Below, piece by piece: positions 11,560 to 57,507 of a stretch of DNA of 64,000 bases (position 1 is the stretch's first letter; every line of letters starts with the position of its first letter). This DNA comes from an uncultured Candidatus Saccharibacteria bacterium (GTDB lineage Bacteria > Patescibacteriota > Saccharimonadia > Saccharimonadales > CAIOMD01): positions 1,925 through 65,924 of the forward strand of contig CAZMHM010000002.1 in assembly GCA_964566135.1 (NCBI GenBank). Direction: 5' to 3'. The notes beneath the pieces are model-generated. The model saw only the letters and a program-made list of their open reading frames with translations, did no database searches and had not been told where the DNA came from. The position numbers and the translations under genes were made by a program.

Positions 11560-11646
11560 GTTACATAGTATAGTGCTGCTTTTCACGCTAGCCATGAGCA
11601 CTTTACCTGTTTCAAGTTATCGGTATGGCTTATATTACACAACAAC

Positions 11647-11670
11647 AAGCGGCCCCATATGGGGCCGCTT
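11647..11670 (-). terminator. Hairpin terminator after clpP
   Basis: AAGCGGCCCC-ATAT-GGGGCCGCTT is a perfect 10-bp palindromic stem, followed on the minus strand by GTTGTTGTTG, which is only a weak U tract. Confidence 0.6.
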
Positions 11671-11689
11671 AGATTAGCCGTGCGTAAAA

Positions 11690-12280
11690 CTACTTGCGGT
11701 TTGTGATGATATCGTCGATAAGGCCGTATTTTTTGGCTTCTTCGGCGGTCATCCAATAATCACGCTCTACATCTTTTTCGATAGTTGCGAGCTTTTGGCC
11801 AGTGTTTTTTGCCAACACTTCGTTAAGTAACTTCTTAAGGCGAAGACCCTCCTTAAGGTCAATTTCCATATCGGTAACCTTACCACGGGTGCCGCTACTT
11901 GGCTGGTGAATCATCGTTGTAGCGTGTGGCAACATAAATCGCTTGCCTTTGGCGCCACTGCTTAGCAAGAATGCGCCCATACTCGCCTGTACACCAATAC
12001 CAACAGTCTGTACGTCACACTTTACAAATTGCATGGTGTCGTAAATGGCCATGCCATCATAGACACTGCCGCCCGGGCTGTTAATATAAAAAATAATGTC
12101 TTTTCTAGGGTCTTCTGCCTCTAAAAATAGCATCTGTGCAACCACGAGGTTGGCGGTGTGCTCGTTTACGTCTTCGCCTAAAAAGATGATACGGTCTTTT
12201 AATAGTCGGCTATAAATATCATAGGCACGTTCTACACGGCCATCGTTTTCGATTACGGTTGGAATAAGCATGTTTTTCAT
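11690..12280 (-). CDS. clpP: ATP-dependent Clp protease proteolytic subunit
   Basis: 196 aa with typical ClpP sequence: ...[52 protein letters not shown]...QASMGAFLL...IHQP. Confidence 0.95.
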
Positions 12281-12287
12281 ACCCTAA

Positions 12288-12329
12288 ATTGTAGTCCGTA
12301 AATTAGCACTCGTCAAGCCTGAGTGCTAA
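12288..12329 (-). promoter_or_regulatory. clpP promoter overlapped by a perfect CIRCE inverted repeat
   Basis: TTAGCACTC-N9-GAGTGCTAA occupies 12303..12329, a perfect match to the HrcA operator consensus. On the minus strand, -35 TTGACG (12316..12311) lies inside the element. A 17-nt spacer separates it from -10 TACAAT (12293..12288), which is 7 nt from the ATG. Confidence 0.8.
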
Positions 12330-12727
12330 TTATGTGTTTTACCAATATACCGATACTCGACAGTGTCATCGGGGAATCGAACAAGTACATCATCGGTTTC
12401 GCCATATAACGGCATTGTAGCCTCCAGCAACCGAGCACGCGCTTGTGCGAGCAAGGCAGCTTGTGCAACATCTTGTACGTTTGTTGCAAACAAGTAGCGC
12501 TCACCGCTCCTTGTCTGACCCAGTAGGTCAATGGCACCCGGCGTACGAATGAACGGGTAGGCATCTACATGGTCAAACTCTTCGCCAGGTAGTAGCAAAA
12601 CACTTTTGTGCCAAAATCGAGGTAATGAGACCTTCGTCGGTTCGGCAACAGTAGGAGGCTGCGACGTTCGAGCTTCGAGCGTTCGATCAATGAAAAATCT
12701 GCTTCTATTGAACTTAGAACTAGTCAT
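12326..12727 (-). CDS. Hypothetical 133-aa protein
   Basis: ORF track entry. TATAAT (12739..12734) lies 6 nt upstream of the ATG and there is no SD. No motif recognised. Confidence 0.5.
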   Translation of the reverse strand: MTSSKFNRSRFFIDRTLEARTSQPPTVAEPTKVSLPRFWHKSVLLLPGEEFDHVDAYPFIRTPGAIDLLGQTRSGERYLFATNVQDVAQAALLAQARARLLEATMPLYGETDDVLVRFPDDTVEYRYIGKTHN

Positions 12728-28558: not shown

Positions 28559-29917
28559 TTATGAGTCTTTAGATAAAAAAGTATTGAGCGCGCTACGTAC
28601 ATCGCGCATCTGATGCAACCACGTCGGTGGCTTAGAACCATTAATTTTTGGCCCGATTGCATCGGTAAATCCGAGTTTTTTGGCTTCGGCAAGGCGCTTA
28701 TCCGCCCATGGCACATGGCGGATTTCACCGCTTAAACCTACTTCGCCAAACACAACTGCATCTGTTTTAAGCTGCATTCCTTTTGCAGCCGAGGCGATTG
28801 CCATACAAATGGCTAAGTCGGCGGCAGGCTCGGTTATTTTCATACCACCAACTATATTAATATAAATGTCTTTGTCGGCTAGTTTTAGTTTTGTGCGGCG
28901 CTCGAGCATGGCAACTAATAAATTTAGCCTGTTTAAATCAATACCTGCTGCTGCACGCTTTGGGTAGCCGTAGCTCGTCGTGTTAACGAGTGCCTGCACT
29001 TCTACCAAAATCGGACGAGTTCCCTCTAGTGTCGCCAGCACAATTGAGCCATCACTAAGCTGCCGCTCCGCCAAAAGTGCCGCTGATGGATTGTCAACAA
29101 CCTTAAGGCCTGTGTCGACCATTTCCAGTATAGCTGCTTCGTTCGTAGACCCGAACCTGTTCTTGATACCACGTAGCACTCTAAAGCCACCGTAGCGATC
29201 CCCCTCGAGCTGCAATACCACATCAACTGCGTGCTCAAGTACTTTTGGCCCGGCAATGCTCCCTTCTTTTGTGACATGGCCGACTAAAATAAGTGCTGTT
29301 TTTGCCTGTTTAGCTGCGACGGTTAATAGTTGCGTGCTGTTGGTAACTTGGCTAACGCTACCTGGTACACCGGTAATCTCGGCTGCAGCTATCGTTTGAA
29401 TTGAGTCTACGATTACCAAGTCGTAGGCATCACTTGCGATGGTTGCAGCAATATCATTAGCACTCGTGCTACTTGCAAGCTGCAAATTCTCGTGCTCTGC
29501 CTTTAAACGCTGGCCGCGCAGGCTAACTTGTTCTGGCGACTCTTCGCCACTGACATATAATACGTTTACTTTTTTTGCCGCATTATAGGCTAGTTGCAGT
29601 AACAGGGTACTTTTCCCAATACCAGGTTGCCCAGCTATTAATACAACGCTACCCGGTACAACACCGCCGCCCAATACCTCGTCGATATCAGGAATGCCGA
29701 GGCTTAGCCGACCCGTAGGCTTGGCGGCTTTCTTATCGAGGGTAACGGGCTTTAAAACATTACCACTTGCTAGTGCTTGTTCTGTTTTGGTGCCACCTCG
29801 AACGTCAATTTGCTGTTCGAGCGTGTTCCATGCACCACAAATACTACATTTACCTGCCCAACTCGTATGATTTGCGCCGCAGGCACTACAAACATACGCT
29901 ACTTTCGCTTTCGCCAT
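28559..29917 (-). CDS. radA: DNA repair protein RadA/Sms
   Basis: Zinc finger CSACGANHTSWAGKCSICGAWNT, Walker A GQPGIGKST, KNRFG and a C-terminal Lon-like domain. Confidence 0.95.
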   Translation of the reverse strand: MAKAKVAYVCSACGANHTSWAGKCSICGAWNTLEQQIDVRGGTKTEQALASGNVLKPVTLDKKAAKPTGRLSLGIPDIDEVLGGGVVPGSVVLIAGQPGIGKSTLLLQLAYNAAKKVNVLYVSGEESPEQVSLRGQRLKAEHENLQLASSTSANDIAATIASDAYDLVIVDSIQTIAAAEITGVPGSVSQVTNSTQLLTVAAKQAKTALILVGHVTKEGSIAGPKVLEHAVDVVLQLEGDRYGGFRVLRGIKNRFGSTNEAAILEMVDTGLKVVDNPSAALLAERQLSDGSIVLATLEGTRPILVEVQALVNTTSYGYPKRAAAGIDLNRLNLLVAMLERRTKLKLADKDIYINIVGGMKITEPAADLAICMAIASAAKGMQLKTDAVVFGEVGLSGEIRHVPWADKRLAEAKKLGFTDAIGPKINGSKPPTWLHQMRDVRSALNTFLSKDS

Positions 29918-31191: not shown

Positions 31192-34100
31192 TTATTTCTT
31201 TACAGTACGCGTACGAGTTGCGATAAACACACCGCCAAGCATGATTGCTGTGATAAACCAGCTTGCTGAAATCGCGCTACCAGAACCAGTGTTAACAAGT
31301 TCGGCTGGTTTTTCGACATTGAGTGTATGCGTATCGGTTGCACATACCTTTATGGCATCGTTCTTTGGCACGTTAATTGCATCAGTATTAATCTTTAAGA
31401 TACTGATTTCAGGGTTTGATTCCTCGAGCTGAGGCTCAAAACCGCAAGACGTTACGGTATTAGTTATCTGCTTGCCTTCGCTACCTGATGGAACAGTGTA
31501 TTTAGCAGTGTATATCCATGTTTCAGTAACATCTAACTTGTTGTCGCTGTTGGTATCACCAGACTGATACACGCCATTACCGGCAATATTATCTGATACA
31601 GCAATGCCTTCAAGTGGCTCGTCGCCAGCATTTGTAACGGTAAACGTATAGGTAACTACATCGCCAACCTTTGCAGTTGTTGGACCTGCTTTAACAACCT
31701 TAATTGCGGGATGAAGCACGTCTAATGTGTGCGTATCGGTTGCGCAAACTTGCGTACCTTCTTCTTCGCTGTAACCATATTCACGACCTTCGTTCCATCG
31801 ATCACCATAGTAATCACCACATGAAGTAACCGTATTTTCGACGTTAGCTACCTGTGGAGCTGGAATTGTGTACTCAACACTGCAGTAGACCCAGTCGCCG
31901 GGATATAGTGACGTAACACCATAACAATCTGCCGTACCAGCAATATCATCAACAACACTCAGATTATCGATATAGGTATCTCCAGAGTTGTATACCCAGA
32001 AGCTATAAGCAACTGTATCCCCTTCGTGAGCTACGTCAGGGCCATATTTGTAAACCTCTAGGCCAGGATTCTGGTTGTCATTATTCGTGATATAACAGGT
32101 TACATTTTCGCCGAGTGCTAGTGTTATAACGTTGCCATCTTGTTCGCCATCATTACACCACCATGTACCTGCAGCATAGCCAGTTGGACCCTGCTCTGAC
32201 AACGCATAGGCAACATTTGCAACAGCAGTTTCTTCGACAACGCCATCTTCGCCATTGCCACTAATAGTGTCTGCACCATCTTCGTCATCAGAAGGAGTTG
32301 CGGTTAATGTCCAATCACTTGGGCTGCTTTCGCCGCTATTGTTATTGATCACCTGCTTCTTCAGGGTAAGCGTTGGTGCGATTGCCGTATTCGTAACTGT
32401 ACAGGTCTTGTCGTCACCTAGTGATATTGTGCCTTCACAATCTTCGGAATACGTAACATTATAGCCATCATGGCTACCTTCGCTTACTTCGTACTCGCCA
32501 ACATTTAGAGTCAATTTCGTACCTGTCTCGCTACCATCAAATTCTTCATCGGATACATTAGTACCGTCGACATACATAGTAAAGTCACTAGCCTCGCCCG
32601 TTCCTCCACTTTTACCGTTTTCAACGTGCTTTATAACCGTTAATTTAGGCTGCACACCAGAATTGGTAATGGTGCAGGTAAAGCTTTGGCCAAGTGCAAT
32701 CGCAAGTGCTGAACTAATTGTTGTAGTCTGCTGAGTTACATTATTGACGCATGACCATTGGCTAGCAGTAAAGCCACTAGGGCCGCCAGTTTCACCAAAT
32801 GTATAGGTATCTGCCTTGAAGTTTGAACCGCTTGTTGCACCAGCAGTGCCGGTAGCACCCGAAAGGTTCGTTGGGTTATTTCCAGTACCGGTTGCTGTTA
32901 GCGTCCAGTTTGATGGATCAACTTTGCTTCCATAGGTTTCGCCAAGCTTTTTAACGAGCGTGAGCGCAGGAGTGTCATCATCATTCACAATCGTACAAAC
33001 AGTAGTTTTTCCATTCGTAAGAGTAATTTTGCTACTAACTACTGTCACGCCATTAGTACATGTCCAGGCACTTGCGGTATAACCACTAGGACCACCTGTT
33101 TCACTAAGTGTATAGGTATCTGCCTTGAAGTTTGAACCGCTTGTTGCACCAGCAGTGCCGGTAGCACCCGAAAGGTTCGTTGGCAAAGCAAGCGTACCCG
33201 TTGCCTTAAGCGTCCAATCAGTTGCATTCGCTGTTCCACCGTTATCCTTGATTAGGCTCTTTACTAACGTAAGCCCCGCAGCTTTGTCGTCATTTGTAAC
33301 AATACACGTTTTCGTTTCTCCAAGTGCAATCGAACCTGAGCAGTCAGCTCCTAAAGATTTGACATACTCATTATCTACAGTTTCATCAACCGTGTATGAA
33401 CCAGGATTTAATGTTACCGTTGTGCCCTGCTCGTCACCTGCAAAACTTGTGTTACTAACATTTGTTCCTGTTACCTTCATGGTAAAGTTTCCAGCAACTT
33501 TAGTGCCGCCGTTATCATTAACGACATGTTTTTTGATAATCAGCTTTGGAGTTACATCGTCATTTGTAATTGTGCAGTTTGTTGTCTGGTTGTGCGAAAC
33601 AACAACGTTGCTACATGTATTGGACGTCATCTGGTACCCACCCGTGTTAGGGTTTACCTCATCAACCGTGTATGTTCCGGTAGGCAAAACAATCGAGTTT
33701 GTACCGTTCCCGTTGAATGTGTACGTCTGGCCATTTACTACGAAACTAAAGTTTCCAGGAGTCTTAGTACCACCATGGTTATTGTGAACAACCTTATTTA
33801 CTACAAGTGTTCCCTTTGTAGCTGAGTTTACAAACTTGCATGAAACGATGTTGTTTGAGGCAATTTGGATACCTGTTACTGCGTTGCCATTCTTTGAACC
33901 ATTATTTGCAGCCCCTGTACAGCTAGCAGATAAAAGAGTGTAGCCAGCTTTTTGGGTCTCATTTACTGAGTACCCCGAAGCAGCGTCAACTTTGACAGCA
34001 GGAGTCTTGCCCTGGGCATCAGTTTGCGAGGCAGCTGGATTAGAGCCACCATTGACATCAAACTCCCAGCCCGCACCGGCAAGAGTCTGATCATTGGTAG

Positions 34101-34890
34101 TATTTGCATTACCATCAGCATCAATGTACTTAGTTGTAGTGACCGTACCGCCACAAGTTTGGCTTGCGAAAGTTGCAAGGCTGGTAGCCAATTGTGCAAA
34201 ATCGGTTGTGATTACATCAGATGTTAGAACATTGCCAGTGTTAGCACTTGGACCAGAGATAGCCTTTAGACGATCAAGTGAACCGCCCGATACCCCAATG
34301 CCCATCGCAAGCATACGAGTTCCGCCGTTCTTGATTGTATTAGCGGCAACAATCGCTGGGTCAAGATGCGCATTTGGTTGACCTGAATCAATCCCACCAA
34401 CTGTGTTGCTAGTCGTTGGATCTCCGTCAGTAGCAAAAATAACAAGGTTTGGGTTTGACGTCCCAGAGGCAAAAGTACTATTTGCCTTAATAAGGCCATC
34501 TTCCCAGTTGGTATAGCCGCCACCAGTAGAGACTGAATCAATTGCATTGTTTGCCGTCGTTACGTCGCTGGTGAAGTTTTGGAGCACTGTTGCACTTGTT
34601 GCGAAACGTGTCACAGAAAACTGCGTAGGAGTGCCGCTCAGCGCATTTGTAAATGCTTTTAGTGCACTTTTGAATGAGTTCATTTCATTAGTGCTAATAC
34701 TTGTAGAATTATCGATAACTATAGCTATATCGAGGCCACACGCTCTTGCAAGTGATGGATTCGCGACGGGAGAAGCAGCATGCGCCGTCCCCGCTAAAGT
34801 CGTCAATGGCCCAAACTGAGCGACCACAAACAGTAAACTTAATAATATCCACCGTGCCCTATTCAATGGGTTCTTTGCTCGCAGCTGCAT
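31192..34890 (-). CDS. Sortase-anchored surface protein: signal peptide, vWA domain, repeated Cna-B/SpaA-like Cys-pair domains, DUF11-like repeats, LVNTG sorting signal
   Basis: Signal peptide ...AGTAHA/AS. vWA MIDAS motif DNSTS at 34699..34713. At least 8 modules of about 90-100 aa end in C-x-(I/V)-(T/V)-N-(D/T/S). Near the C-terminus are VTYTFTVTNAGD-type repeats. The C-terminus reads ELVNTG (31285..31299) plus a hydrophobic helix plus RTRTVKK. The SD is strong (AAAGGAGGCGGTTATG). Confidence 0.87.
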   Translation of the reverse strand: MQLRAKNPLNRARWILLSLLFVVAQFGPLTTLAGTAHAASPVANPSLARACGLDIAIVIDNSTSISTNEMNSFKSALKAFTNALSGTPTQFSVTRFATSATVLQNFTSDVTTANNAIDSVSTGGGYTNWEDGLIKANSTFASGTSNPNLVIFATDGDPTTSNTVGGIDSGQPNAHLDPAIVAANTIKNGGTRMLAMGIGVSGGSLDRLKAISGPSANTGNVLTSDVITTDFAQLATSLATFASQTCGGTVTTTKYIDADGNANTTNDQTLAGAGWEFDVNGGSNPAASQTDAQGKTPAVKVDAASGYSVNETQKAGYTLLSASCTGAANNGSKNGNAVTGIQIASNNIVSCKFVNSATKGTLVVNKVVHNNHGGTKTPGNFSFVVNGQTYTFNGNGTNSIVLPTGTYTVDEVNPNTGGYQMTSNTCSNVVVSHNQTTNCTITNDDVTPKLIIKKHVVNDNGGTKVAGNFTMKVTGTNVSNTSFAGDEQGTTVTLNPGSYTVDETVDNEYVKSLGADCSGSIALGETKTCIVTNDDKAAGLTLVKSLIKDNGGTANATDWTLKATGTLALPTNLSGATGTAGATSGSNFKADTYTLSETGGPSGYTASAWTCTNGVTVVSSKITLTNGKTTVCTIVNDDDTPALTLVKKLGETYGSKVDPSNWTLTATGTGNNPTNLSGATGTAGATSGSNFKADTYTFGETGGPSGFTASQWSCVNNVTQQTTTISSALAIALGQSFTCTITNSGVQPKLTVIKHVENGKSGGTGEASDFTMYVDGTNVSDEEFDGSETGTKLTLNVGEYEVSEGSHDGYNVTYSEDCEGTISLGDDKTCTVTNTAIAPTLTLKKQVINNNSGESSPSDWTLTATPSDDEDGADTISGNGEDGVVEETAVANVAYALSEQGPTGYAAGTWWCNDGEQDGNVITLALGENVTCYITNNDNQNPGLEVYKYGPDVAHEGDTVAYSFWVYNSGDTYIDNLSVVDDIAGTADCYGVTSLYPGDWVYCSVEYTIPAPQVANVENTVTSCGDYYGDRWNEGREYGYSEEEGTQVCATDTHTLDVLHPAIKVVKAGPTTAKVGDVVTYTFTVTNAGDEPLEGIAVSDNIAGNGVYQSGDTNSDNKLDVTETWIYTAKYTVPSGSEGKQITNTVTSCGFEPQLEESNPEISILKINTDAINVPKNDAIKVCATDTHTLNVEKPAELVNTGSGSAISASWFITAIMLGGVFIATRTRTVKK
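32801..32874 (-). repeat. 74-nt perfect intragenic direct repeat, copy 1
   Basis: gtataggtatctgccttgaagtttgaaccgcttgttgcaccagcagtgccggtagcacccgaaaggttcgttgg is identical to 33110..33183. The offset is 309 nt, which is 103 codons and therefore in frame. Confidence 0.95.
33110..33183 (-). repeat. 74-nt perfect intragenic direct repeat, copy 2
   Basis: Identical to 32801..32874. Both copies encode PTNLSGATGTAGATSGSNFKADTYT. Confidence 0.95.
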
Positions 34891-36725: not shown

Positions 36726-39700
36726 TTAATACTTTGTAATTGTCAGTAAACCGTTACTAGCTGCGTCTTCAAGAGGGCCCGATAGCCGTGCGTCGGAATT
36801 GATTTTTAAAATAAAGGAGAGGTTATCCCTTTGGCTAATACTAACGTAGTCGCGAATTTGATTGGTATATGTTTGATATTGAACATTCTTAGTCTCGCCA
36901 AGAACTCGAGAATTAAGTGTGTCAGGAACACGATATCTCCCAGGTCGCAATACCGAATCGACCCTCGTTGTATTTTGTACTGTATTTGATCGCACCATAC
37001 CGTCGGCGTACTTTTCAAATGCAGTGGCAACTTTTCCTTCAGCTTCAGAAGCATGGGGAGCTATTTGTGCTGCGGTCGGCGTCGAGAACCAATTTTTTAC
37101 TGCTGTTACAACCTTGCCGCCAGAGCTCAACGCTCTACTGCCAGTTGAAATGATTGCACCAGAGCTTCTTGCAACTAGAGCCGCCGCAGTAATATATGGG
37201 GCACTCGCTGCGATTGCTCCAGCTGCCGCGGCGCAGAATGCAATACACGCCGCTACTGCCGCTACTGCAACAACTACTGCTACGGCCACTACAACAGCCT
37301 TGCCCCACGATGGTAGCCCGTTAAACCATTTCTTGACACTCCACATCCCGTTATAATCCGCATAATTGACTGGGTCTAGTACGTATGAGTAGCTATTCGG
37401 CGTGCCGCCCTCAACAGGGTCTACCTGTAGGAACCTGCCTAGCGTAGGCAAGTATACGCGTGCACCCATTTGGATTATTGGGATGCTAAACATGCTTTCT
37501 GACTTACGGGCAGGGTTTGCCGCCCAGCCCATACCTTCGTTACTTGCATTTGTTGGATTCCCACTAGTGCCAAAAGTTGTCGATGCGATAGGTAAGCCAA
37601 ACGGATCATAAAGGTAAACTGCACTTGTGGCAGTCCCATCTTTGCCAACAGTTATAGCGGTGTCGCCATGGAAATTCTTTATAGAATACGTATCGGTGGT
37701 GTTAATGGTCAGCCCTACACCACCAGGTAACGAAACATACTTATCGGCTATTGCGCACTGATTTTCATCTTGTACGTTGCACGTAAGCATTACACTCGAG
37801 CTATTTCGATATATCTTATCAAGTACGCCGTTTCTGAATTCTTTTTTTACAAGGACACTGCCGCTGACAGTTTTGGTGTACTCGACACGGTTTTGACCTT
37901 GCGTAATCGAGATATTCTGATCGTCAGCAGTGTATCCAAATGAAATCGGCGTACCAGCACCAGCAAGCTCGGTAATATTGCCATGATCGTCATAAACAGG
38001 AGTGCCTATTTGCCCATCGCTCGAACTAATCAGCCTATCGGCGCTATCGTAACAGCTGTTTACCGTCGTGGTGACACTTGTAGTGTTATTTGTCACTGTA
38101 TAGGATGTTCTGTTGCCATTCTTATTGGCGTTGGCATTATAGCCGGTCAAGCTACTACAGCTCGAGTCTTGTGCTCCAAATCCATACTGATACAGCATAT
38201 TATCGACGGATGTACTCGTTAGCCTACCGCCTGTGTCATATCCATAGGTTGCCCCTCCGGTTTTGCCATCAAAGCTATTCGCGTAATTAAGCACTATACC
38301 TGATTGCAATGATGATGTGACAGTTTCATCAAATTGCTTACCATCGCTAAGGCTAAATGTTGCTCCCGAATTCTGTTGCATGGCGTCACGTTTAACCTGG
38401 GTAAGTTTCATGTTTGTTCCGTTGGCCTGCGCCTGCGGATATTCAACATTCAGAATTCGGCCAAATTGATCATAGCTTGTTGACGCATATATCTTTCCGT
38501 CTATCGAGTAACTCGTTGGCCTATCGAGAGAATCATATAGATACGATTCTGAACCTTTTATAGATACGATTGACACAATGTGACCAAAGTTATCGCGATT
38601 GATAGTAGTCTCATATCCAAAACTATCGGTTACCTTGACAGGCCTGCCAAGCAAATCAGATTCACTGATACTCGTGCCCGTAACACTGTCCGTCTGGGCA
38701 GTAATGAGTGGATTACCATTGTGCGCAAAGTTATTACTGATGGTGCGCCCAGGCCTTCCATTAACCGTAGGCGAAACCATCTGAACAATCCGGCCTCTAG
38801 CATCAAGACGGGTACAAGTCCATGCATCGTTATTAAACCTTGTTGCTACTACGCGACCCGAGGCATCATACACCGATTCGCTGGTGCGCGACGTTAATGG
38901 ACCTGCGCCATCAGGGTCAGGCTCAGCCTTACCTTTAGCAAATCCAGCCTGGCTAACGGCAATACTGTTTGCGTCACAAGGGTTAGCAATTACGTCTTCT
39001 GTTGCACGATAATACTGATACGCATAGCTATTTCCGCCAGGTAGGGTCTTGGCTGTTTGGCGCATTAAGCTCCCTGCTTGGTATGGCTCGTAAGCAATTG
39101 AGCTTGTAAGATTTAGCCCGCCAGCGTCAGCAGTGATTGATTTTTCTTGGCCAAGTTCTGGTTGCGAACCATAATCTTTTTTTAGCGTGACATTCGAAGT
39201 TTGACTATCATAGGTCGTTGTCGAGGTTACGAGGTTATATGCCGGCCTCATAACATTCGACCAGAACGGATTGCCCGTAGAAAGATCCAGGCCGCCTCCC
39301 TTTATTCTCATACTAAATGCCATGTAGTCATTACCGACGTTGGCATAGTCATACTTAAACCTATAGGGTTTGTTGGCTTCAAGCGTTATTGCCGCCGAGT
39401 AGCTCATCTTGATAGCAGTCCCCCGGTTTGCCCAGTCATCTATGACAAGTTTATCGTCGATATAAAGTCTGGCGGCATCTTCGTGGTTAATCTGGAAGGT
39501 ATAGCTTGCATTTGCGGGCAATACCAGTACGCCTGTTGCAATAAATCCTACACCAGTTGCGCTAGTTGATTTTGTAATCGGCGCAGCCCGATAGTTTGAA
39601 TCTTGCCAAAACAAGTCCGGCTGCTGGCTGTCAAAGCCAGTCTGGTGATACTTTGAAGCTCCAACAAAGGATCCGCCGTTAGCCGAAGAATAGTCATACC

Positions 39701-42700
39701 ATGCCACTGCAGGGCCCTTAAAACCTTCATCATACTTCGTGCTTGTGCGCGGAACTTTGTTCTCGTTTTCGACAAGTGGTTTTAGGTTCGTCCCAAACCA
39801 TCCACTTGGCGCCGGACCGTATGATTCAATTGGCAAATCATTCGCATCGTAAATGGTCGTTGATTTCAGACCGGTTGGATCCGTAGACGCATACAATAAG
39901 TCTTTTGTGCTATCCCATGTACGGGTAGACACGAGACCATCCTTGGCCATGGTACGAACTGGGCGCAACAATGAATCGTATTCCACTCGTTGTGCGTATC
40001 CGTTCGGCATTGAAGATTTCGTGATAACCCATTTATCGTTTGCATCCTTAGCTGACGTGTAGCCATCAGTCATCTCTGCAAAGCCAACGACCTTTTCTTT
40101 CTCATCGCCTGTCCCTAATAAAGTAGAGTTTGGCACATACCTATATGTATGTATTCCCCTCACTCCTCCACTAGAGGCCGAAGGCATAACTACCTGCTCG
40201 ACACGCCCAATACTGTCGTAGACAAACTGCGTCGTTACGGTGTCGTCATTTGCGCGCACGCCAGCATCTACGACATCATTGGCGGTGCTACCTTTGAGTT
40301 GTACAATTCTTCCGTTGGTGTCATATCCGATATCTTGCCTGATACCACCACTCGTTGCGAGTTGCGATAACCTATAGACTTCCTGGTTATTAATGACTAC
40401 TTTTTTGTACCAGAAATTTGTAAAGTTATTATCGGTAGTCTCTGTCCGACACAACATTCCAGCCGGAGCGCGCACTAAGCCATCAGGAGCATTATTCGGA
40501 GAATTACACTGACTATCGCCGCCATAGTACACACGCAAGTTTCGGCTAATATCTACACCATCAATGATCTTTGTTACGTGAGCCGGCGAGCCACCATATT
40601 CATAACGCAATGCCGCTAGTCGTAAATCATCAGTTGGAGTCGTCACTGTTTTTAGTAAACCATCCGTACCAAAATCATATGTCCTGCCATCACTATCAAG
40701 TAGCACAAAAGTACCGTCTGCATTGCGTGCAAGATAGCCGTATTCGTTTACGGGTGGCTTATATGCGCTGCCCGTCCATGTATACTCATGCGTATCGCCG
40801 TTAGAGTCATAGATTAAGGCGCCAGTTGACGTCGCCTTAAGCCTCTCGTAGGCAATACTACCAGTAGGGTCGATGCCCATCGTCCAGCCTTCTGGCAATG
40901 TATTTGCTCCTGTAGTAAGCCAACTACTTGGTACCGTTTCGCTTCGGGTAGCGTTAAGCCATTTAACATAGAACTGCATGGCTGCACCACTGCCATTCTC
41001 ATAGTAGTCAATCGTAACTTTTCGAGTTGTCCCCTCTGCTAGTCGCAGTAATGCCCCACACTGATTTGCGGTTACGCCCTGATCCCTCCAGTAATCTGCA
41101 TACAGCGCATCGTCAAGATACAACCTAAAGCCATCATCGGCCCCGATACAAAACTGATAATCTGTTGTTTGCGGAACCGTGATATAGCCCGACCATCGAG
41201 TCACGACCCTATCTGCAATTCCCGAGCCTGGCAAGAACTCGCCTGTTCCCCAGTTGAATTGCATAACTTTGTCTTGACGCGTCATAAATGGTGCCCTTGC
41301 TTGAGGAACTGCGAAGCCCTCGCCGTCGTTCAGCTTGTAATAACGACCGGTCAAACCAGCATTAGGTTTAGTTGCTTTCAAGCCAGTGCGTAACCAGTCG
41401 TTTGGAATAACGCGGTCGCTGATAATGACAGCTCCTGAGGTATCTTTAGCCCGAACCCACATCTTTGCCTGTGCGCCGCCACCATATTCAATCATCCATG
41501 CATTAAGTGGAACGGCTTGGCCTTCGACCAAATCAATGCCAACAGTGTCCCCCCAACTACTTCCGGGAGCGGTGTAGTCGAACACAAGCGTTCCGTTAAT
41601 AGCCGCGGACATTTTGTCATCGCGGGTTGAACCAAAATAGTACTTTCCCGTCTTAGGGGCCACGAAATATCCAGTCCAATTAGCCGCAAAGTTATCCGCG
41701 ACAATTGTCCCTGGCTGCGGGCTTGATAGCCCCCAATCAAAGTCAATATTTGCATCAACACGCGTTAGGCCAACTTTTGTAGCATCTCCGCCTGGCGCAT
41801 TGTAATACGTTGCATCAAGCCCTTTTTGACTCATAACAGGCGAATTGTAATCCAAATTTATACCCATCGCCCCGCCAAGCGCATTCATAGTGTTAGAGCC
41901 TACACTAGTCGTAAGGTTACCCGTTACCAAGTTAACTGATGTGCCTGCGACTTCGTCGTATACCTGAGAATTATTTTTACCCGTTCGCAAGTCTACTTTA
42001 AATGGTATTGGTTGTGTCACGTTCCAATAGTCACCACCCCTTGCATAGTGAGTTGTGACATCGGCGTTATCAAATACATAACCGCAGAACCAATACGTCT
42101 GACCATCGTCAAGCACTCCGTCAGGTACAGTCCACTGCGTAGCTGGTACTAATTGCGAATCGACTAAAATGCTAGCCGGATTCCAACAATCTACTGGTTT
42201 CGATGTCATAACCCTAAACCAATATTTAAGTGTATCGCCATTACCGTCACCACTTGCTCCCATTTTAAACGAAGGCTGAGTGCTCGTTAGAATCTGAGGG
42301 TTGCCCGAACTATTGGCAGGTAAGGCAGGCACTATTGGGGTCGGTGCGGTTGGTTGTTTGTTGTAGTCTACGAGATACATATCTACAAAGGTGCCGTATG
42401 GGTCAAGTTGTTTAAAGCTCGTTGTGTTCCATTCTTCGCCATAAATCATTAGCCAACCACCATAGTCACCACGGCTTTGTAGCCATCTAAAGATTGGTGC
42501 AATATCTGCCCATCCATCCGTTGCCATCTGGAATTGGACAACTGGCGCACCGCCTCCGTTATTGTAATTAAACGCAGGTAGCCATGTAACATACATCCAG
42601 CGAGTATCGGTATAGCCTACCCAACTTGCTGTACCAAGGCGCATATTGGTATGTAGCCATGCAGACTCAATGTAGCGACCGTTCGCATCACCGTAAGGGA

Positions 42701-43964
42701 TTTGAAATCCGGTATGCCAAAGTCTCTTACCGGCACCAGCTTGGTTTAATGAACCTGTATACATCCAACAGTTTGCACTAGAACACACGTAGCCGTCAGA
42801 CTTGTAATCGACATAACTATTGCTGTTGTTGTTTACCCCTCTACGCCACGCCCCAAAACTTGGGTCGACTACCACCGGAAAGCTCGTCTTTGGCAAAGAG
42901 CTCAACCAGCTTGGCAGAACTTGTACCACAAAGAAACCGTTTTTGTAGGTGACTTTGATTGGTGGATTACTCATCGGGCCCTCACCCCAAACACTAACCG
43001 TAAAAGGGGCGATGTTGATTTTCGAATCTTTAACCGCCCAATAACCGTCACCTGCATCTACAAGCTCGCCTCCAAGAACCTTAAACATATATGTGTTTGC
43101 AGCCGAAGCATTCTTTATAACAATTGATTCTTTGATTGATTCCGGGCTGATATCGTACTGCAAATCAATGCCATTCCAGGCATCTTTATATGCAATGTAG
43201 TTCCGCCCCTTATCTGTAACTTCTTTAGGGATTACTTTGTCTGATGTACCAATTGGCACAAAACGCACGCTTTTTACTCCGTCACTCACAAGCATACCGT
43301 CACCATCCATGAGCGTCTGCAGTTGTACAGACAGCTCGGATGTTTTTGCATTTAGCGCGGTAGGTTGCGAAGAACCAGGGAGTATTTTTTGCAGGATACT
43401 TTCGCTTTGCTTACGATTTTTGGCGTAGTTTGTATCACTACTTGTCGAGTTATCATGTTTTTGCCAGCCTGATGACGTCTTATCATTTGTAGATGTCGCA
43501 CCAATCCGTTTTGCCAGTGTACCGTCGGCTAACGTCTGCTGGTTTGTCTTTGCATCGACAGCTTCCAGTTTACCTGTGTCAATTTTCCTCGCAGATTTTT
43601 GGTGCTCTGAAGTAATGCTTTTGCCAACATCAGAAGGATTAATAGTATCTTCTTGTTTTGCACTCTCTGGAATACTACTCATATCAGCGGCCTGCGTTAT
43701 TTTCTGGTCTTGGGCAGATTTTTGGCTGGCAGATAAAGGCTTTGATTTCCCGTTTTCGGCAACCGCCTTATTAACATTCGTAGCAATAGGTAGCAAGAAC
43801 GATGCTACAAATGCAACAATAAAAAACAGCGCCATGAGACGCTGTTTTTGGGAGTTAACCTTTGAAAGAGGGCGCGAAAAAGCGCCTGTCGCCGCGATAA
43901 ATAGTGGACGTTTTGGACTTTTTGCGGTGTTTGTGTGGATGCGCTTCAAATGCAAATATGGCAT
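36726..43964 (-). CDS. RHS/YD-repeat polymorphic toxin (WapA-like): signal/TM, N-terminal beta-rich region, 3 PA14 domains, YD-repeat shell, RHS core motif, hydrophobic linker, PD-ExK nuclease-like C-terminus
   Basis: 2412 aa. The N-terminal hydrophobic segment is MALFFIVAFVASFLLPIATNVNKAVA. PA14-like blocks lie at about aa 715-845 (41430..41822), 869-1003 (40956..41360) and 1415-1560 (39285..39722), each with YY...F.W...P...F..RWTG-type patterns. There are many YD repeats (YEYGG, IGYDTNGR, FVYDSIGR, VEYDSLLR, YGYDTGGR...). The RHS core end reads GARVYLPTLGRFLQVDPVEGG..NSYSYVLDPVNYADYNGMW. A 204-aa C-terminal module follows. Confidence 0.92.
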   Translation of the reverse strand: MPYLHLKRIHTNTAKSPKRPLFIAATGAFSRPLSKVNSQKQRLMALFFIVAFVASFLLPIATNVNKAVAENGKSKPLSASQKSAQDQKITQAADMSSIPESAKQEDTINPSDVGKSITSEHQKSARKIDTGKLEAVDAKTNQQTLADGTLAKRIGATSTNDKTSSGWQKHDNSTSSDTNYAKNRKQSESILQKILPGSSQPTALNAKTSELSVQLQTLMDGDGMLVSDGVKSVRFVPIGTSDKVIPKEVTDKGRNYIAYKDAWNGIDLQYDISPESIKESIVIKNASAANTYMFKVLGGELVDAGDGYWAVKDSKINIAPFTVSVWGEGPMSNPPIKVTYKNGFFVVQVLPSWLSSLPKTSFPVVVDPSFGAWRRGVNNNSNSYVDYKSDGYVCSSANCWMYTGSLNQAGAGKRLWHTGFQIPYGDANGRYIESAWLHTNMRLGTASWVGYTDTRWMYVTWLPAFNYNNGGGAPVVQFQMATDGWADIAPIFRWLQSRGDYGGWLMIYGEEWNTTSFKQLDPYGTFVDMYLVDYNKQPTAPTPIVPALPANSSGNPQILTSTQPSFKMGASGDGNGDTLKYWFRVMTSKPVDCWNPASILVDSQLVPATQWTVPDGVLDDGQTYWFCGYVFDNADVTTHYARGGDYWNVTQPIPFKVDLRTGKNNSQVYDEVAGTSVNLVTGNLTTSVGSNTMNALGGAMGINLDYNSPVMSQKGLDATYYNAPGGDATKVGLTRVDANIDFDWGLSSPQPGTIVADNFAANWTGYFVAPKTGKYYFGSTRDDKMSAAINGTLVFDYTAPGSSWGDTVGIDLVEGQAVPLNAWMIEYGGGAQAKMWVRAKDTSGAVIISDRVIPNDWLRTGLKATKPNAGLTGRYYKLNDGEGFAVPQARAPFMTRQDKVMQFNWGTGEFLPGSGIADRVVTRWSGYITVPQTTDYQFCIGADDGFRLYLDDALYADYWRDQGVTANQCGALLRLAEGTTRKVTIDYYENGSGAAMQFYVKWLNATRSETVPSSWLTTGANTLPEGWTMGIDPTGSIAYERLKATSTGALIYDSNGDTHEYTWTGSAYKPPVNEYGYLARNADGTFVLLDSDGRTYDFGTDGLLKTVTTPTDDLRLAALRYEYGGSPAHVTKIIDGVDISRNLRVYYGGDSQCNSPNNAPDGLVRAPAGMLCRTETTDNNFTNFWYKKVVINNQEVYRLSQLATSGGIRQDIGYDTNGRIVQLKGSTANDVVDAGVRANDDTVTTQFVYDSIGRVEQVVMPSASSGGVRGIHTYRYVPNSTLLGTGDEKEKVVGFAEMTDGYTSAKDANDKWVITKSSMPNGYAQRVEYDSLLRPVRTMAKDGLVSTRTWDSTKDLLYASTDPTGLKSTTIYDANDLPIESYGPAPSGWFGTNLKPLVENENKVPRTSTKYDEGFKGPAVAWYDYSSANGGSFVGASKYHQTGFDSQQPDLFWQDSNYRAAPITKSTSATGVGFIATGVLVLPANASYTFQINHEDAARLYIDDKLVIDDWANRGTAIKMSYSAAITLEANKPYRFKYDYANVGNDYMAFSMRIKGGGLDLSTGNPFWSNVMRPAYNLVTSTTTYDSQTSNVTLKKDYGSQPELGQEKSITADAGGLNLTSSIAYEPYQAGSLMRQTAKTLPGGNSYAYQYYRATEDVIANPCDANSIAVSQAGFAKGKAEPDPDGAGPLTSRTSESVYDASGRVVATRFNNDAWTCTRLDARGRIVQMVSPTVNGRPGRTISNNFAHNGNPLITAQTDSVTGTSISESDLLGRPVKVTDSFGYETTINRDNFGHIVSIVSIKGSESYLYDSLDRPTSYSIDGKIYASTSYDQFGRILNVEYPQAQANGTNMKLTQVKRDAMQQNSGATFSLSDGKQFDETVTSSLQSGIVLNYANSFDGKTGGATYGYDTGGRLTSTSVDNMLYQYGFGAQDSSCSSLTGYNANANKNGNRTSYTVTNNTTSVTTTVNSCYDSADRLISSSDGQIGTPVYDDHGNITELAGAGTPISFGYTADDQNISITQGQNRVEYTKTVSGSVLVKKEFRNGVLDKIYRNSSSVMLTCNVQDENQCAIADKYVSLPGGVGLTINTTDTYSIKNFHGDTAITVGKDGTATSAVYLYDPFGLPIASTTFGTSGNPTNASNEGMGWAANPARKSESMFSIPIIQMGARVYLPTLGRFLQVDPVEGGTPNSYSYVLDPVNYADYNGMWSVKKWFNGLPSWGKAVVVAVAVVVAVAAVAACIAFCAAAAGAIAASAPYITAAALVARSSGAIISTGSRALSSGGKVVTAVKNWFSTPTAAQIAPHASEAEGKVATAFEKYADGMVRSNTVQNTTRVDSVLRPGRYRVPDTLNSRVLGETKNVQYQTYTNQIRDYVSISQRDNLSFILKINSDARLSGPLEDAASNGLLTITKY

Positions 43965-45107: not shown

Positions 45108-47585
45108 CTATTCTTTGACGACAGAAAAACGTAAGCCTTTTTTGTCAGTTCCCACCTTAATTACATCTCCATCATTGTAAGCACCGCTTAAGACCGCTTC
45201 TGCTATATGGTCTTCAATTGTATCTTGGATCAGGCGTCGCATTGGTCGCACACCGTTATGCGCATCATAGCCGTTTTCGAGCAGCCATTCCTTAGCGGGA
45301 GTATTAAGAACTAAACCTAGTTTCTTGCGTTGCAATCGACTCTGTAGCTCTGCGATTTGGACATCGATAATCTTTTTGACGTCGTCTTTCGTAAGCGCAC
45401 GGAACACAATAATCTTATCGATTCGGTTAATGAGTTCAGGACGCATGTGCTTTTTAAGCTCGTCATTGACTTTGTCTTTATTCTCTTCGTGAAGAGTATC
45501 AAGATCTTTTGCGTCTTTAGCGCCAACCCTGAATCCTAAACTAGCTTCTTTTTGCAACAAATGCGCACCGATATTACTTGTCATGATGATGATGGTATTC
45601 CTAAAATCAACCTTGCGACCTTTCGCATCGGTTAACTCACCATCTTCGAAAATCTGCAAAAGCATGTTAAAGACTTCTGGGTGAGCTTTTTCGATTTCAT
45701 CAAACAGCACGAGACTATATGGTTGGCGACGAATCTTATCGGTTAACTGGCCCCCTTCTTCGTATCCGACATAGCCCGCAGGCGCACCAACTAGTCGAGC
45801 AACGGTATGTCGTTCACTAAACTCACTCATATCAATCTTAATTAACGCATCATCACGACCAAAGAATTCGTGTGCCAAAATGCGTGCAAGCTCTGTCTTA
45901 CCAACACCCGTCGGACCCATAAAGATAAACGAACCAATGGGGCGCTTTTCGCTACCAATTCCAGAGCGACTTCGGCGAATTGCCTTAGCCACTGCCTCGA
46001 CCGCTTCTTTTTGTCCAATGACGTGCCTTGTAAGCTGCTGCTCTAGCTTCAAAAGGTTCTTAGCCTCTTGACGTACAAGTTTGCGAACCGGTACACCGGT
46101 CGCCTGGCTAACAACGGCAGCGATATCATCGCTACTTAGTGTTAGGCGCTTGTGTGACGCAGTCTTTTCTTTAAGTGATTCTAACTTTTCTTGTGCGGCA
46201 CTAATACGTTGCTTATACTTCGCAGCGCGTTCATAATCTTCTTGCTCTACGGCATCATCACGGCGAACCGTCAGTAGTTTAATTTCTTTTAAGAGGGTTC
46301 GGTATTCAGTAGGAGTCTTGCCTTTATCAACGCGCAACAAAGCTGCTGCTTCGTCGAGCAAGTCAATCGCCTTATCGGGCATAAATCGATCGTTAATATA
46401 GCGATCTGCAAAATAGACTGCATCTTCGACAATTTTATCGTCGATAACCACGCCATGAAAATGCTCATAATGGCTTTTGAGCCCTTTTAAGATAGCTATT
46501 GTTTCTGGGACGGTAGTTTCTGGGACAACAACAGGCTGGAATCGACGCTCAAGCGCGGCGTCTTTTTCGATATGCTTATGATATTCACTCGTCGTGGTAG
46601 CGCCAATAACTTGGATATGCCCACGCGCAAGTGCTGGCTTTAAAATATTGCCGGCATCTATCGCACCTTCGGCAGCACCAGCGCCAACCAGTAGGTGCAT
46701 TTCATCAATAAAGACAATGATTTTCCTGTCATTAGTAAGCTCATCCATCACCTTTTTTAGGCGTTCTTCAAACTCACCACGATATTTGGTGCCTGCAATC
46801 ATAGCAGCTAAATCAAGCATAACTATTCTCTTATCAAGCAGGCTATCAGGCACATCCTCGGCAACAATGCGCTGGGCAAGGCCTTCGACGACTGCAGTTT
46901 TGCCAACTCCCGGCTCACCAATAAGGACAGGATTGTTTTTGCTACGTCGATTTAAGATAGTAATCATTCGACGCACAACGCCTTCTCTGCCAATTACTGG
47001 ATCTAGCTTTCCGCTCGCAGCAAGCGCGGTTAAGTCTGTTCCAAAGTATTCAAGTGCACTTTTGTTGCCTTTCTTTTTCGTACGCGTAGCTGTGCGCTTT
47101 TGGCCATCTTGTTCGCTTTCATACTGTTGGCGATGCAAAAACTGCTCGAGTTCTTCAAGCAACCTATCAATATCGACATTCATATCACGTAGCAGTACTG
47201 TTGCTCGGGCATTCTTTTGCATAAGCATGCTATACAAAATGTGCTCTGTACCGCACATATCTTGGTTAAAGTCTTGGGCGTAATCCCAGCTAAGCTTTAA
47301 AGCCAGCTTGGCTGTTTCGCTCAGGCCTTTAGCACCTAAGTTGATGACAAGGTTCTTAGGCGTCAAATTGAGTGCAAGTTGTGCACGCTGGAAGTTAACC
47401 CCTGCAGATTCGAGCATCTTTGCTGCAACAGAAGATTCTTGGCTTAAAACGCCGAGCAGTACGTGTTCGGTACCGACATACGCACTACCTTGCGTACGCG
47501 CAATTTGATCAGCCTGCTTAAGGCTCATCAAAGCATTTTCGGTTAAATGGTTCAAAAATTCTTGAAAATCAGGTGATTCAGGCAT
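45108..47585 (-). CDS. clpC: ATP-dependent Clp protease ATP-binding subunit ClpC-type (class I AAA+)
   Basis: 825 aa. Duplicated Clp_N repeat, Walker A motifs GEPGVGKTA and GPTGVGKTE, and two AAA+ modules. Confidence 0.93.
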   Translation of the reverse strand: MPESPDFQEFLNHLTENALMSLKQADQIARTQGSAYVGTEHVLLGVLSQESSVAAKMLESAGVNFQRAQLALNLTPKNLVINLGAKGLSETAKLALKLSWDYAQDFNQDMCGTEHILYSMLMQKNARATVLLRDMNVDIDRLLEELEQFLHRQQYESEQDGQKRTATRTKKKGNKSALEYFGTDLTALAASGKLDPVIGREGVVRRMITILNRRSKNNPVLIGEPGVGKTAVVEGLAQRIVAEDVPDSLLDKRIVMLDLAAMIAGTKYRGEFEERLKKVMDELTNDRKIIVFIDEMHLLVGAGAAEGAIDAGNILKPALARGHIQVIGATTTSEYHKHIEKDAALERRFQPVVVPETTVPETIAILKGLKSHYEHFHGVVIDDKIVEDAVYFADRYINDRFMPDKAIDLLDEAAALLRVDKGKTPTEYRTLLKEIKLLTVRRDDAVEQEDYERAAKYKQRISAAQEKLESLKEKTASHKRLTLSSDDIAAVVSQATGVPVRKLVRQEAKNLLKLEQQLTRHVIGQKEAVEAVAKAIRRSRSGIGSEKRPIGSFIFMGPTGVGKTELARILAHEFFGRDDALIKIDMSEFSERHTVARLVGAPAGYVGYEEGGQLTDKIRRQPYSLVLFDEIEKAHPEVFNMLLQIFEDGELTDAKGRKVDFRNTIIIMTSNIGAHLLQKEASLGFRVGAKDAKDLDTLHEENKDKVNDELKKHMRPELINRIDKIIVFRALTKDDVKKIIDVQIAELQSRLQRKKLGLVLNTPAKEWLLENGYDAHNGVRPMRRLIQDTIEDHIAEAVLSGAYNDGDVIKVGTDKKGLRFSVVKE

Positions 47586-47631: not shown

Positions 47632-47672
47632 AGTATAGCAATAAATTAGCACTCGTCAATAACGAGTGCTAA
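47632..47672 (-). promoter_or_regulatory. clpC promoter overlapped by a perfect CIRCE inverted repeat
   Basis: TTAGCACTC-N9-GAGTGCTAA occupies 47646..47672. On the minus strand, -35 TTGACG (47659..47654) lies inside the element. A 16-nt spacer separates it from -10 TATACT (47637..47632). Confidence 0.8.
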
Positions 47673-47694: not shown

Positions 47695-48876
47695 TTACTC
47701 TGTAGCGTCTTCGCCGTGTTCTTCGATAGCTTCAAGGAGGCTATTTTCTAAATCACTCTTGCGCTTTAGCTTAGGTGCATTAGCAGCGTGAACAACCTTT
47801 GCCTCTTCGGGCTTAATTGGCTCTTCTGCCTTAACTGGCTGTTCGCTTTCGATATCAAGTTCATAGCCACTTAGCTTGCTCGCAAGGCGAACATTTTGGC
47901 CACTCTTACCGATTGCAACTGAAAGCTGATCTTCGGGTACAATAACGCGCGCCTTGTGATTCTTTTCATCAAGTTCGACGCGAGTCACATTTGTTGGGCT
48001 CAGCGCATTTGTAATGTACTGCTTAGTTTCGTCAGCCCAGATAACAATATCAATCTTCTCTTGTTCGCCAATTTCACTCATAACTGCTTGCACACGAGTA
48101 CCATGACCACCAACAAAGGTGCCAACAGGGTCTACGCCCTGTACTGTGCTGGCAACTGCAATCTTACTGCGCACGCCGGCTTCGCGGGCAATACCTTTAA
48201 TAACAACTGCGCCGTTTTCCATTTCTGGCACTTCTGCACGAAATAGATGTTCTAGGAATTCTGGGCAACCGCGACTAACAATAAGCTGTGCACCCCTAAA
48301 ACCACGCTCGACATCTTTTAGATATACCTTTAAGCGTTGTCCGGGATAGTAGCGCTCACCTTGAATTTGTTCGCTAGCAGGCATGATGCCTTGTGCTTTG
48401 TTAAGCTCAAGGCGAATCAAACGACCTTCTACGCGAGTTACAGTACCGTTGATAACGGTGTGAATCTTATCTTCGAACTCAGCCATAACGATTTCTCGCT
48501 CGGCTTCACGCAAACGCTGCAAGATAACTTGCTTCGCAGTCTGCGCAGCAACACGGCCAAAGTTTTCAACCTTTTCTTCGATTTCAACAGTCTCGCCTGC
48601 TTTTGCGTTCTTACGGATAACTTGCGCATCGCCGACACTAATTTGCAAGAACTCGTTTTCAACTTCGTCAACGACTTCTTTGGTGATGTACACAAATACC
48701 GTACCGTTGTTTACATTGATAACTGCTCGAACTTCTTGTTCGCGATCACCGTAGTCGCGACGCCATGCTGCAGCAAGTGCTTGCTCAACTGCATCTTGTA
48801 CGACGTCTTCTGGTAAATTCTTTTCTTCGGCGATTGCCTTAACCGCCATCACTAGTTGTTTTGTCTCTAATTCCAT
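47695..48876 (-). CDS. nusA: Transcription termination/antitermination factor NusA
   Basis: N-terminal domain, S1 and two KH regions (..GQNVRLASKLSGYELDI..). The start is taken at ATG 48876, 7 nt after AAGGAG; the track's first Met is a TTG. Confidence 0.93.
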   Translation of the reverse strand: MELETKQLVMAVKAIAEEKNLPEDVVQDAVEQALAAAWRRDYGDREQEVRAVINVNNGTVFVYITKEVVDEVENEFLQISVGDAQVIRKNAKAGETVEIEEKVENFGRVAAQTAKQVILQRLREAEREIVMAEFEDKIHTVINGTVTRVEGRLIRLELNKAQGIMPASEQIQGERYYPGQRLKVYLKDVERGFRGAQLIVSRGCPEFLEHLFRAEVPEMENGAVVIKGIAREAGVRSKIAVASTVQGVDPVGTFVGGHGTRVQAVMSEIGEQEKIDIVIWADETKQYITNALSPTNVTRVELDEKNHKARVIVPEDQLSVAIGKSGQNVRLASKLSGYELDIESEQPVKAEEPIKPEEAKVVHAANAPKLKRKSDLENSLLEAIEEHGEDATE

Positions 48877-48895
48877 CAAAAATCTCCTTATCTCA

Positions 48896-57216: not shown

Positions 57217-57507
57217 CTAGCGAGTCCTTTTTTCTTCTCGTTTGCGCTGCGCTATCATCGCGCGCCGCTCAAGCTCTGTTTTGCCGGCCCATATCCCTGC
57301 CATATGCTCATCACTGAGGGCAAATTCTAGGCAAGCAGACGTTACAGTGCATTTTCGGCAAACAGCTTTTGCTTGCTCGATCTGATTAAGGTATACGCCC
57401 GAATTGCCTATTGGGAAGAATAGTTCAGGATCTTCATTCCGGCAGACCGCTTTGTGACGCCAATCTAAACGCTTGTCACTGTCGGGCTCCGAAATGGATT
57501 CTGACAT
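57217..57507 (-). CDS. whiB: WhiB-like (Wbl) iron-sulfur transcription factor
   Basis: Four Cys in a C-x29-C-x2-C-x5-C arrangement (AVCRNEDPELFFP...AKAVCRKCTVTSAC), a G(I/V)W(G/A)G turn (GIWAG) and a basic tail (RRAMIAQRKREEKRTR). Confidence 0.88.
   Translation of the reverse strand: MSESISEPDSDKRLDWRHKAVCRNEDPELFFPIGNSGVYLNQIEQAKAVCRKCTVTSACLEFALSDEHMAGIWAGKTELERRAMIAQRKREEKRTR

Follow-up and report, generated by a model that had tools for sequence, protein, structure and literature searches.

The HrcA repressor and its inverted-repeat operator CIRCE classically control the groESL and dnaK operons of Bacillus subtilis and many other bacteria. The B. subtilis operator is situated downstream of the -10 element, and in model organisms HrcA is inactivated when GroEL is titrated away. 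Control of the Clp protease genes clpP and clpC is exerted by CtsR in Firmicutes and by ClgR in Actinobacteria. To our knowledge, transcriptional regulation has hardly been studied in the Patescibacteria (candidate phyla radiation), to which the tiny, parasitic Saccharibacteria (TM7) belong. A full-text search for HrcA together with Saccharibacteria, TM7, Patescibacteria, or the candidate phyla radiation returned no paper on the subject, and the co-mentions that it did return are unrelated as judged from their titles and abstracts.

Clp proteins and related factors have been connected with HrcA before. [quoted passage not shown] The Saccharibacteria locus that we describe resembles S. salivarius clpP in having a CIRCE/HrcA site on its promoter, but there is no CtsR box, the partner gene clpC also has a CIRCE, and the arrangement is conserved across an order of an unrelated phylum. 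As in Mollicutes and L. gasseri, the predicted HrcA regulon extends to AAA+ chaperones or proteases in a reduced genome with few regulators. Here, however, it would include the ClpC-ClpP pair rather than ClpB, Lon, or ClpL, and it occurs in another phylum. A preliminary description of this DNA had proposed that HrcA control of clpP would amount to a rewired heat-shock regulon; such control gains comparative support from the evidence given below, but in light of these precedents it is not unprecedented.

Compared with the canonical system, the operator TTAGCACTC-N9-GAGTGCTAA is identical, is again part of the promoter of a gene for protein quality control, and is also found at the groES gene of Saccharibacteria. 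Repression of a promoter that is used by the housekeeping sigma factor is presumed. What differs is that the predicted targets are clpP and clpC, which encode a protease, and that the -35 element is located inside the operator spacer.

Predicted operators and promoters of clpP and clpC

The sequence TTAGCACTCGTCAAGCCTGAGTGCTAA at positions 12303..12329 of a 64-kb stretch of DNA (hereafter, the window) is a CIRCE inverted repeat, TTAGCACTC-N9-GAGTGCTAA, that agrees with the consensus at 18 of 18 arm positions with no mismatches. Our scan thereby recovers both the coordinates and the perfect arm match that had been reported for it. When up to three mismatches are allowed, the whole window has two matches, both of them perfect, versus 0.03 expected from shuffled sequences. 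For a perfect 18-base match on either strand of the 64 kb, simple arithmetic gives a naive expectation of about 2e-6.

Read on the minus strand, which is the gene strand, the unit is TTAGCACTC-aggcTTGAC-GAGTGCTAA-tttacggac-TACAAT-ttagggt-ATG, with the CIRCE ending 23 nt before the clpP start codon. A promoter scan predicts a sigma-70-like promoter in this interval that consists of TTGACG (12311..12316, minus strand), a 17-nt spacer, and TACAAT (12288..12293, minus strand). It agrees with the consensus at 10 of 12 positions, a score that is equalled, but not exceeded, by one site within the coding sequence of clpP. The -35-like hexamer is formed by the last five bases of the CIRCE spacer (positions 5-9) and the first base of the promoter-proximal arm, just as the preliminary description had placed it. 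The -10-like hexamer precedes the clpP ATG by 7 nt, a spacing that is also found in relatives. This close placement (12281..12293 in the window), with 6-7 nt separating the hexamer from the clpP start codon, is seen in most loci of Saccharibacteria (L122, L123, L125, L126, L127, L130, L029, L054, L098, and L106), even where there is no CIRCE, and this position suggests that the clpP mRNA may be leaderless or near-leaderless in this lineage.

The clpP gene itself (11690..12280, minus strand) encodes a 196-aa Clp protease proteolytic subunit. Its identity is supported by a score of 309.8 bits against NCBIfam PRK00277 (NF001368), for which the cutoff is 249, and by an E-value of 3.7e-89 for TIGR00493. 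A terminator-like hairpin of 11 pairs (8 G-C) that is followed by a T-rich tail occurs 3' of the gene (11646..11671, minus strand). Upstream of clpP is a 133-aa ORF (12326..12727, minus strand) that has no NCBIfam or Pfam match and whose protein is on record as an exact copy in public collections. Farther upstream, a 153-aa protein of the nucleoside 2-deoxyribosyltransferase family (PF05014; 12766..13227, minus strand) is inserted between tig and clpP, and it may bear on the salvage of nucleotides by an organism that does not make its own.

The second perfect CIRCE in the window (47646..47672, 18 of 18 arm positions) was absent from the preliminary description. It is located between nusA (47695..48879) and a gene for an 825-aa AAA+ protein (45108..47585), and both genes are on the minus strand. 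The unit TTAGCACTC-gttaTTGAC-GAGTGCTAA is followed by a predicted promoter with the same layout as at clpP, in which the -35-like hexamer TTGACG (47654..47659, minus strand) falls within the CIRCE spacer and arm. A 16-nt spacer separates it from the -10-like hexamer TATACT (47632..47637, minus strand), which is preceded by TG, and the promoter again agrees with the consensus at 10 of 12 positions. At both genes, the CIRCE overlaps the best promoter-like site of its region (the joint best at clpP), which is the predicted promoter of the gene that it would regulate.

The 825-aa protein is a ClpC-type ATPase. It contains two Clp_N repeats, an AAA domain, a UVR motif that sits in a short middle region, and AAA_2 and ClpB_D2-small domains, and its translation includes an LGF tripeptide of the kind that docks ClpP. 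Its homologs are named ClpC by JGI, and one that is 92% identical is assigned to Candidatus Saccharimonadales by NCBI. The two sites are 35 kb apart, and both halves of the ClpC-ClpP protease carry the same operator/promoter unit.

Several other features of this region deserve mention. The genes clpC and radA are near neighbors in Saccharimonadales (clpC, a gene for a 320-aa hypothetical protein, then radA in L207-L212), without ctsR or mcsAB, and this gene order recalls the ctsR-mcsA-mcsB-clpC-radA operon of Firmicutes. The radA gene of the window (28559..29917) is separated from clpC by two giant-protein genes (1232 and 2412 aa; 31192..34890 and 36726..43964) and smaller ORFs. The window also encodes a 96-aa WhiB-family protein (PF02467, E = 3e-23; 57217..57507, minus strand). 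Because WhiB proteins are typical of Actinobacteria, the group that provides the hosts of cultivated Saccharibacteria, this gene may have been acquired horizontally.

If the operator is real, clpP could still be co-regulated or chiefly regulated by a different regulator, such as CtsR, ClgR, or HspR. Dual control of clpP by CtsR and HrcA is known in streptococci, and expression data from the cultivated strain TM7x provide a hint of extra inputs. In the part of the published TM7x RNA-seq results that we drew on, clpP (TM7x_02110) and a Clp ATPase gene (TM7x_03020) are upregulated in stable symbiosis, and groES/EL, dnaK, dnaJ, and grpE are downregulated. This pattern, in which the clp genes covary and the chaperone genes respond oppositely in a single comparison, is not what one shared repressor predicts. 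On the other hand, no CtsR box or ClgR operator is found near clpP or clpC. The CtsR box (RGTCADNNANRGTCADN, a tandem heptad) has one match with one mismatch in the window, at 24525, versus 1.84 expected by chance. The ClgR operator, which we take from the Corynebacterium and Streptomyces literature to be WNNWCGCYNANRGCGWWS, also has one such match, at 23238, versus 1.92 expected. CtsR and ClgR have the same clpP and clpC targets elsewhere and would serve the same physiological purpose, but their operator sequences differ from the one found here, and clpC is preceded by nusA rather than by ctsR-mcsA-mcsB. The annotation tables for the Saccharibacteria species Southlakia epibionticum (PMC10633639 supplements) do not mention CtsR, ClgR, or HspR. 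We consider it quite unlikely that one of these regulators co-regulates or chiefly regulates clpP.

Conservation and distribution of the operator/promoter fusion

Conservation of the clpP operator was assessed with loci that were chosen by protein homology, independent of the motif. A metagenome scan with the ClpP protein gave 80 loci. Nine of these are assigned to Saccharibacteria by hisS-tig-clpP-rpoB-rpoC synteny with the window and by RpoB proteins that are 64-82% identical. A CIRCE is present at five of the nine, with no mismatches in L122, L123, and L124, three in L125, and two in L126, and the three perfect sites lie 25-38 nt ahead of the stretch of clpP that aligns. No CIRCE is found at clpP in the four most distant of the nine syntenic loci (L127-L130), and in two of these (L128 and L129) clpP directly adjoins tig. 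The link between clpP and CIRCE is consequently not universal in Saccharibacteria. The remaining 71 loci were assigned to other phyla by Tig proteins that are about 25-39% identical to that of the window, where the locus includes tig, and no CIRCE with up to four mismatches occurs at any of them.

The window is closely related to a MAG that is labelled uncultured Candidatus Saccharibacteria (L101), with 82.6% DNA identity in the rpoB region. The clpP operator is perfect in L101, as it is in the other nearest relatives (L122, L123, and L124). Gene order is shared with S. epibionticum over rpoB, a hypothetical gene, clpP, a hypothetical gene, and tig, and over nusA, clpC, and a hypothetical gene. 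The single hypothetical gene between clpP and tig in S. epibionticum corresponds to two ORFs in the window.

For the clpC operator, seven ClpC homologs on long contigs (71-92% identical) were likewise chosen by protein homology, and all seven loci preserve the order nusA, clpC, hypothetical gene, radA. Every one of them has a CIRCE in the nusA-clpC spacer, and five of these sites are perfect, one has one mismatch, and one has two (0, 0, 2, 0, 1, 0, and 0 for L206-L212). No further CIRCE with up to three mismatches occurs in any of these loci, which extend up to 22 kb. The gene call for ClpC in L208 (position 10001) begins with a GTG inside the right arm of the CIRCE; this start is probably an annotation artefact, and the true start is probably further downstream.

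When the 12 motif-independent sites are combined with the two from the window, the 14 sites come from genomes that range from 33% to 52% GC. Their arms have 1.83-1.89 bits of information per position, compared with 0.62 for the spacer and 0.33-0.36 for the flanks. The arms are nearly invariant amid flanks that have been randomized, and this is a clear phylogenetic footprint of the kind left by a protein that recognizes a specific DNA sequence. Thus, the site is kept in orthologous promoters (five of nine for clpP and seven of seven for clpC) while the nearby DNA diverges.

A -35-like hexamer is found inside the CIRCE spacer at every site that was compared, and it occurs in three registers. It occupies spacer positions 5-9 plus the first arm base in the window, L122, and L206; positions 1-6 in L123-L125 and L207-L212, where it reads TTGACA, TTGACG, TTGACC, TTGCAT, or TTGATT; and positions 3-8 in L126. 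A TAnnnT hexamer can be read 16-18 nt downstream in each case. Preservation of the overlap while its register shifts argues that the overlap between the operator and the -35 element may itself be under selection, which is what would be predicted if repression operates by occlusion of RNA polymerase.

To map the distribution of this fusion, we scanned one genome per species for TTAGCACTC-N4-TTGAC-GAGTGCTAA and obtained at least 120 loci. Among the matches listed, clpP follows the motif solely in Saccharibacteria-type genomes, in at least six loci whose proteins are 67-93% identical to that of the window. ClpC-type genes follow it in at least nine Saccharibacteria or Patescibacteria loci (57-69% identical), and one MAG has the fusion at both clpP and clpC (L029 and L048), as the window does. 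Core members of the HrcA regulon have the same operator in this lineage: groES is found behind the fusion in at least nine Saccharibacteria loci and in at least one that is labelled Patescibacteria group, and groEL in at least two Patescibacteria or Saccharibacteria loci (including L096). Within these groups, dnaK follows it in at least two loci and hrcA in at least four. These dnaK and hrcA loci, among the matches listed, are from Patescibacteria other than Saccharibacteria.

The same fusion, with TTGAC at spacer positions 5-9, occurs in Lachnospiraceae and other Clostridia, but the genes that follow it there are different. Among the matches listed, the first downstream ORF encodes hsp18/20 at most loci and otherwise clpB, htpG, lon, dnaJ, or hrcA, with representatives confirmed by NCBIfam, and no clpP or ClpC-type gene is included. 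The presence of the fusion ahead of hsp18/20, clpB, htpG, lon, and dnaJ in many Lachnospiraceae (L002-L120, among the matches listed) implies that their HrcA regulon may be much enlarged.

These comparisons bear on whether the palindrome might instead function mainly in the transcript, as a terminator or stabilizing hairpin that ends the transcription unit of tig, the 153-aa protein, and the 133-aa ORF. The stop codon of the 133-aa ORF (TAG, 12326..12328) does fall within the distal arm of the clpP CIRCE, and RNA from the gene strand is predicted to fold into a hairpin of 11-12 bp with a free energy of -14.8 kcal/mol and a z-score of -2.98. However, the exact letters of the CIRCE are kept across 33-52% GC, where a requirement for pairing alone would tolerate compensatory changes, and the same sequence precedes clpC, groES, hrcA, and dnaK in varied upstream contexts. 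An intrinsic terminator at 12303..12329 was rejected specifically, since the hairpin is followed by UUUACGGAC and there is no U-tract on the transcribed minus strand; the terminator scan reports a hairpin only on the irrelevant plus strand. We regard a mainly RNA-level function as very improbable. It is equally implausible that the site is a chance match or a decaying relic, with clpP expressed constitutively from its own promoter or by read-through from tig, for although the clpP CIRCE is degraded or lost in some Saccharibacteria, it matches at 18 of 18 positions where even three mismatches would be rare by chance, it is duplicated at clpC, and it is perfect in the nearest relatives.

HrcA in Saccharibacteria and other Patescibacteria

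An HMM search does not find hrcA in the 64-kb window. The gene is, however, described in S. epibionticum ML1 (PMC10633639 supplements), where SEML1_0720 (729 bp, 242 aa) is assigned to K03705, PF01628, and PF03444 and to the ECOD domains of the HrcA structure 1stz. It is located directly upstream of grpE and dnaK, in the order hrcA-grpE-dnaK. According to the same supplements, Tn-seq classifies hrcA as essential and clpP (SEML1_0493) and the Clp ATPase gene (SEML1_0512) as non-essential. The essentiality of hrcA could reflect either polarity on grpE-dnaK or toxicity of the derepressed regulon. Among the rows listed in the supplementary tables of three TM7x papers, the only hrcA is that of the host.

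Searches with HrcA profiles recover relatives of other lineages. When the loci that we had fetched were searched with the hrcA HMM, matches were confined to those that are not from Saccharibacteria. Broader profile searches, including one with HMMER over 1.84 billion representatives, gave no Saccharibacteria name among the matches listed, most of which are unnamed. The names that do appear are Moranbacteria, Parcubacteria, Patescibacteria group, Andersenbacteria, Eubacteriaceae, 'Candidatus Fimivivens sp.', and unclassified 'bacterium'. The HrcA of S. epibionticum matches Pfam weakly (E = 2e-20, PMC10633639 supplements), and therefore Saccharibacteria HrcAs probably rank below the matches listed. 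Four viral contigs that contain hrcA were considered as candidates for Saccharibacteria and rejected; three of them have 55-61% G+C and full-length ORFs of about 350 aa, and in the fourth the gene adjoins large phage-like ORFs.

Parcubacteria, Moranbacteria, and Kuenenbacteria loci also contain hrcA, which encodes a short HrcA there (PF01628, about 227-251 aa). The gene is preceded by a CIRCE with the architecture described above, and the repressor may therefore be autoregulated in these groups. A dnaK gene is found downstream of hrcA in the Parcubacteria and Moranbacteria loci. In contrast with the HrcA of about 340 aa that is known elsewhere, the Patescibacteria protein has a short form, with about 226-260 aa (L046, L066, and L080; P0001-P0120; P0164-P0313), and it lacks roughly 100 residues. 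One contig that is labelled Candidatus Fimivivens sp. (DATMYW010000001.1, L065) carries hrcA and dnaK of the Parcubacteria type, 63-69% identical to those of L080, and so it is probably mis-binned or mislabelled.

Predicted regulation of the Clp protease and its significance

We think it likely, with good confidence, that the palindrome upstream of clpP functions as a CIRCE operator for HrcA within a sigma-70-type promoter of a Saccharibacteria genome. The preliminary description had predicted that an HrcA operator would occlude the clpP promoter, and this proposal is supported by the twin site at clpC, the retention of the clpP and clpC sites in relatives, the conservation of the arms, the operator at groES and, in other Patescibacteria, at hrcA, and the lack of CtsR and ClgR boxes nearby. 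The sequences, their positions, and their conservation are observed, whereas HrcA binding, its dependence on GroEL, use of the promoter, the transcription start, and induction by stress are all predicted by analogy to what is known of HrcA and CIRCE in other organisms.

The -35 element is located inside the operator, and the first half of the promoter spacer is taken up by the promoter-proximal arm. In the mechanism that we propose, a bound HrcA dimer would therefore block the -35 element and the upstream half of the spacer and keep RNA polymerase off the clpP promoter. When unfolded proteins accumulate, HrcA would lose activity and clpP would be transcribed, probably as a leaderless mRNA. The identical operator/promoter unit at clpC would place the whole ClpCP protease in the HrcA regulon with groES-groEL, where this repressor would take over the role of CtsR in Firmicutes or ClgR in Actinobacteria. 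Proteotoxic stress would then induce clpC jointly with clpP and groESL. The opposite responses of the clp and chaperone genes in TM7x, and the lack of a CIRCE at clpP in L127-L130, count against this proposal. Because both sites persist in related genomes, HrcA, which normally controls chaperones, probably regulates the Clp protease in this lineage.

A broader proposal is also possible, although we advance it tentatively and with considerable doubt. Short-form HrcA might act as the only master repressor for all members of the proteostasis set (GroES/EL and ClpC-ClpP) in Saccharibacteria, and perhaps more broadly in Patescibacteria, replacing CtsR or ClgR in an ultra-small genome. If so, the essentiality of hrcA in S. 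epibionticum would result from toxic derepression of ClpCP rather than from polarity on grpE-dnaK.

This type of regulation is known and does not constitute a new mechanism. What is new is the predicted placement of the ClpC-ClpP pair under HrcA, lineage-wide in Saccharimonadales, with an operator that is fused to the -35 element. The analysis supplies a defined operator/promoter architecture and a concrete, conserved regulon prediction (groESL, clpC, and clpP) for one of the few recognizable regulators in these reduced genomes. Nanosynbacter lyticus TM7x and S. epibionticum can both be cultivated, and the latter is genetically tractable, so this prediction is testable now. HrcA control of the Clp protease in Saccharibacteria would represent a further case of heat-shock regulon rewiring between phyla, in which a common set of Clp targets is controlled by CtsR, ClgR, or HrcA.
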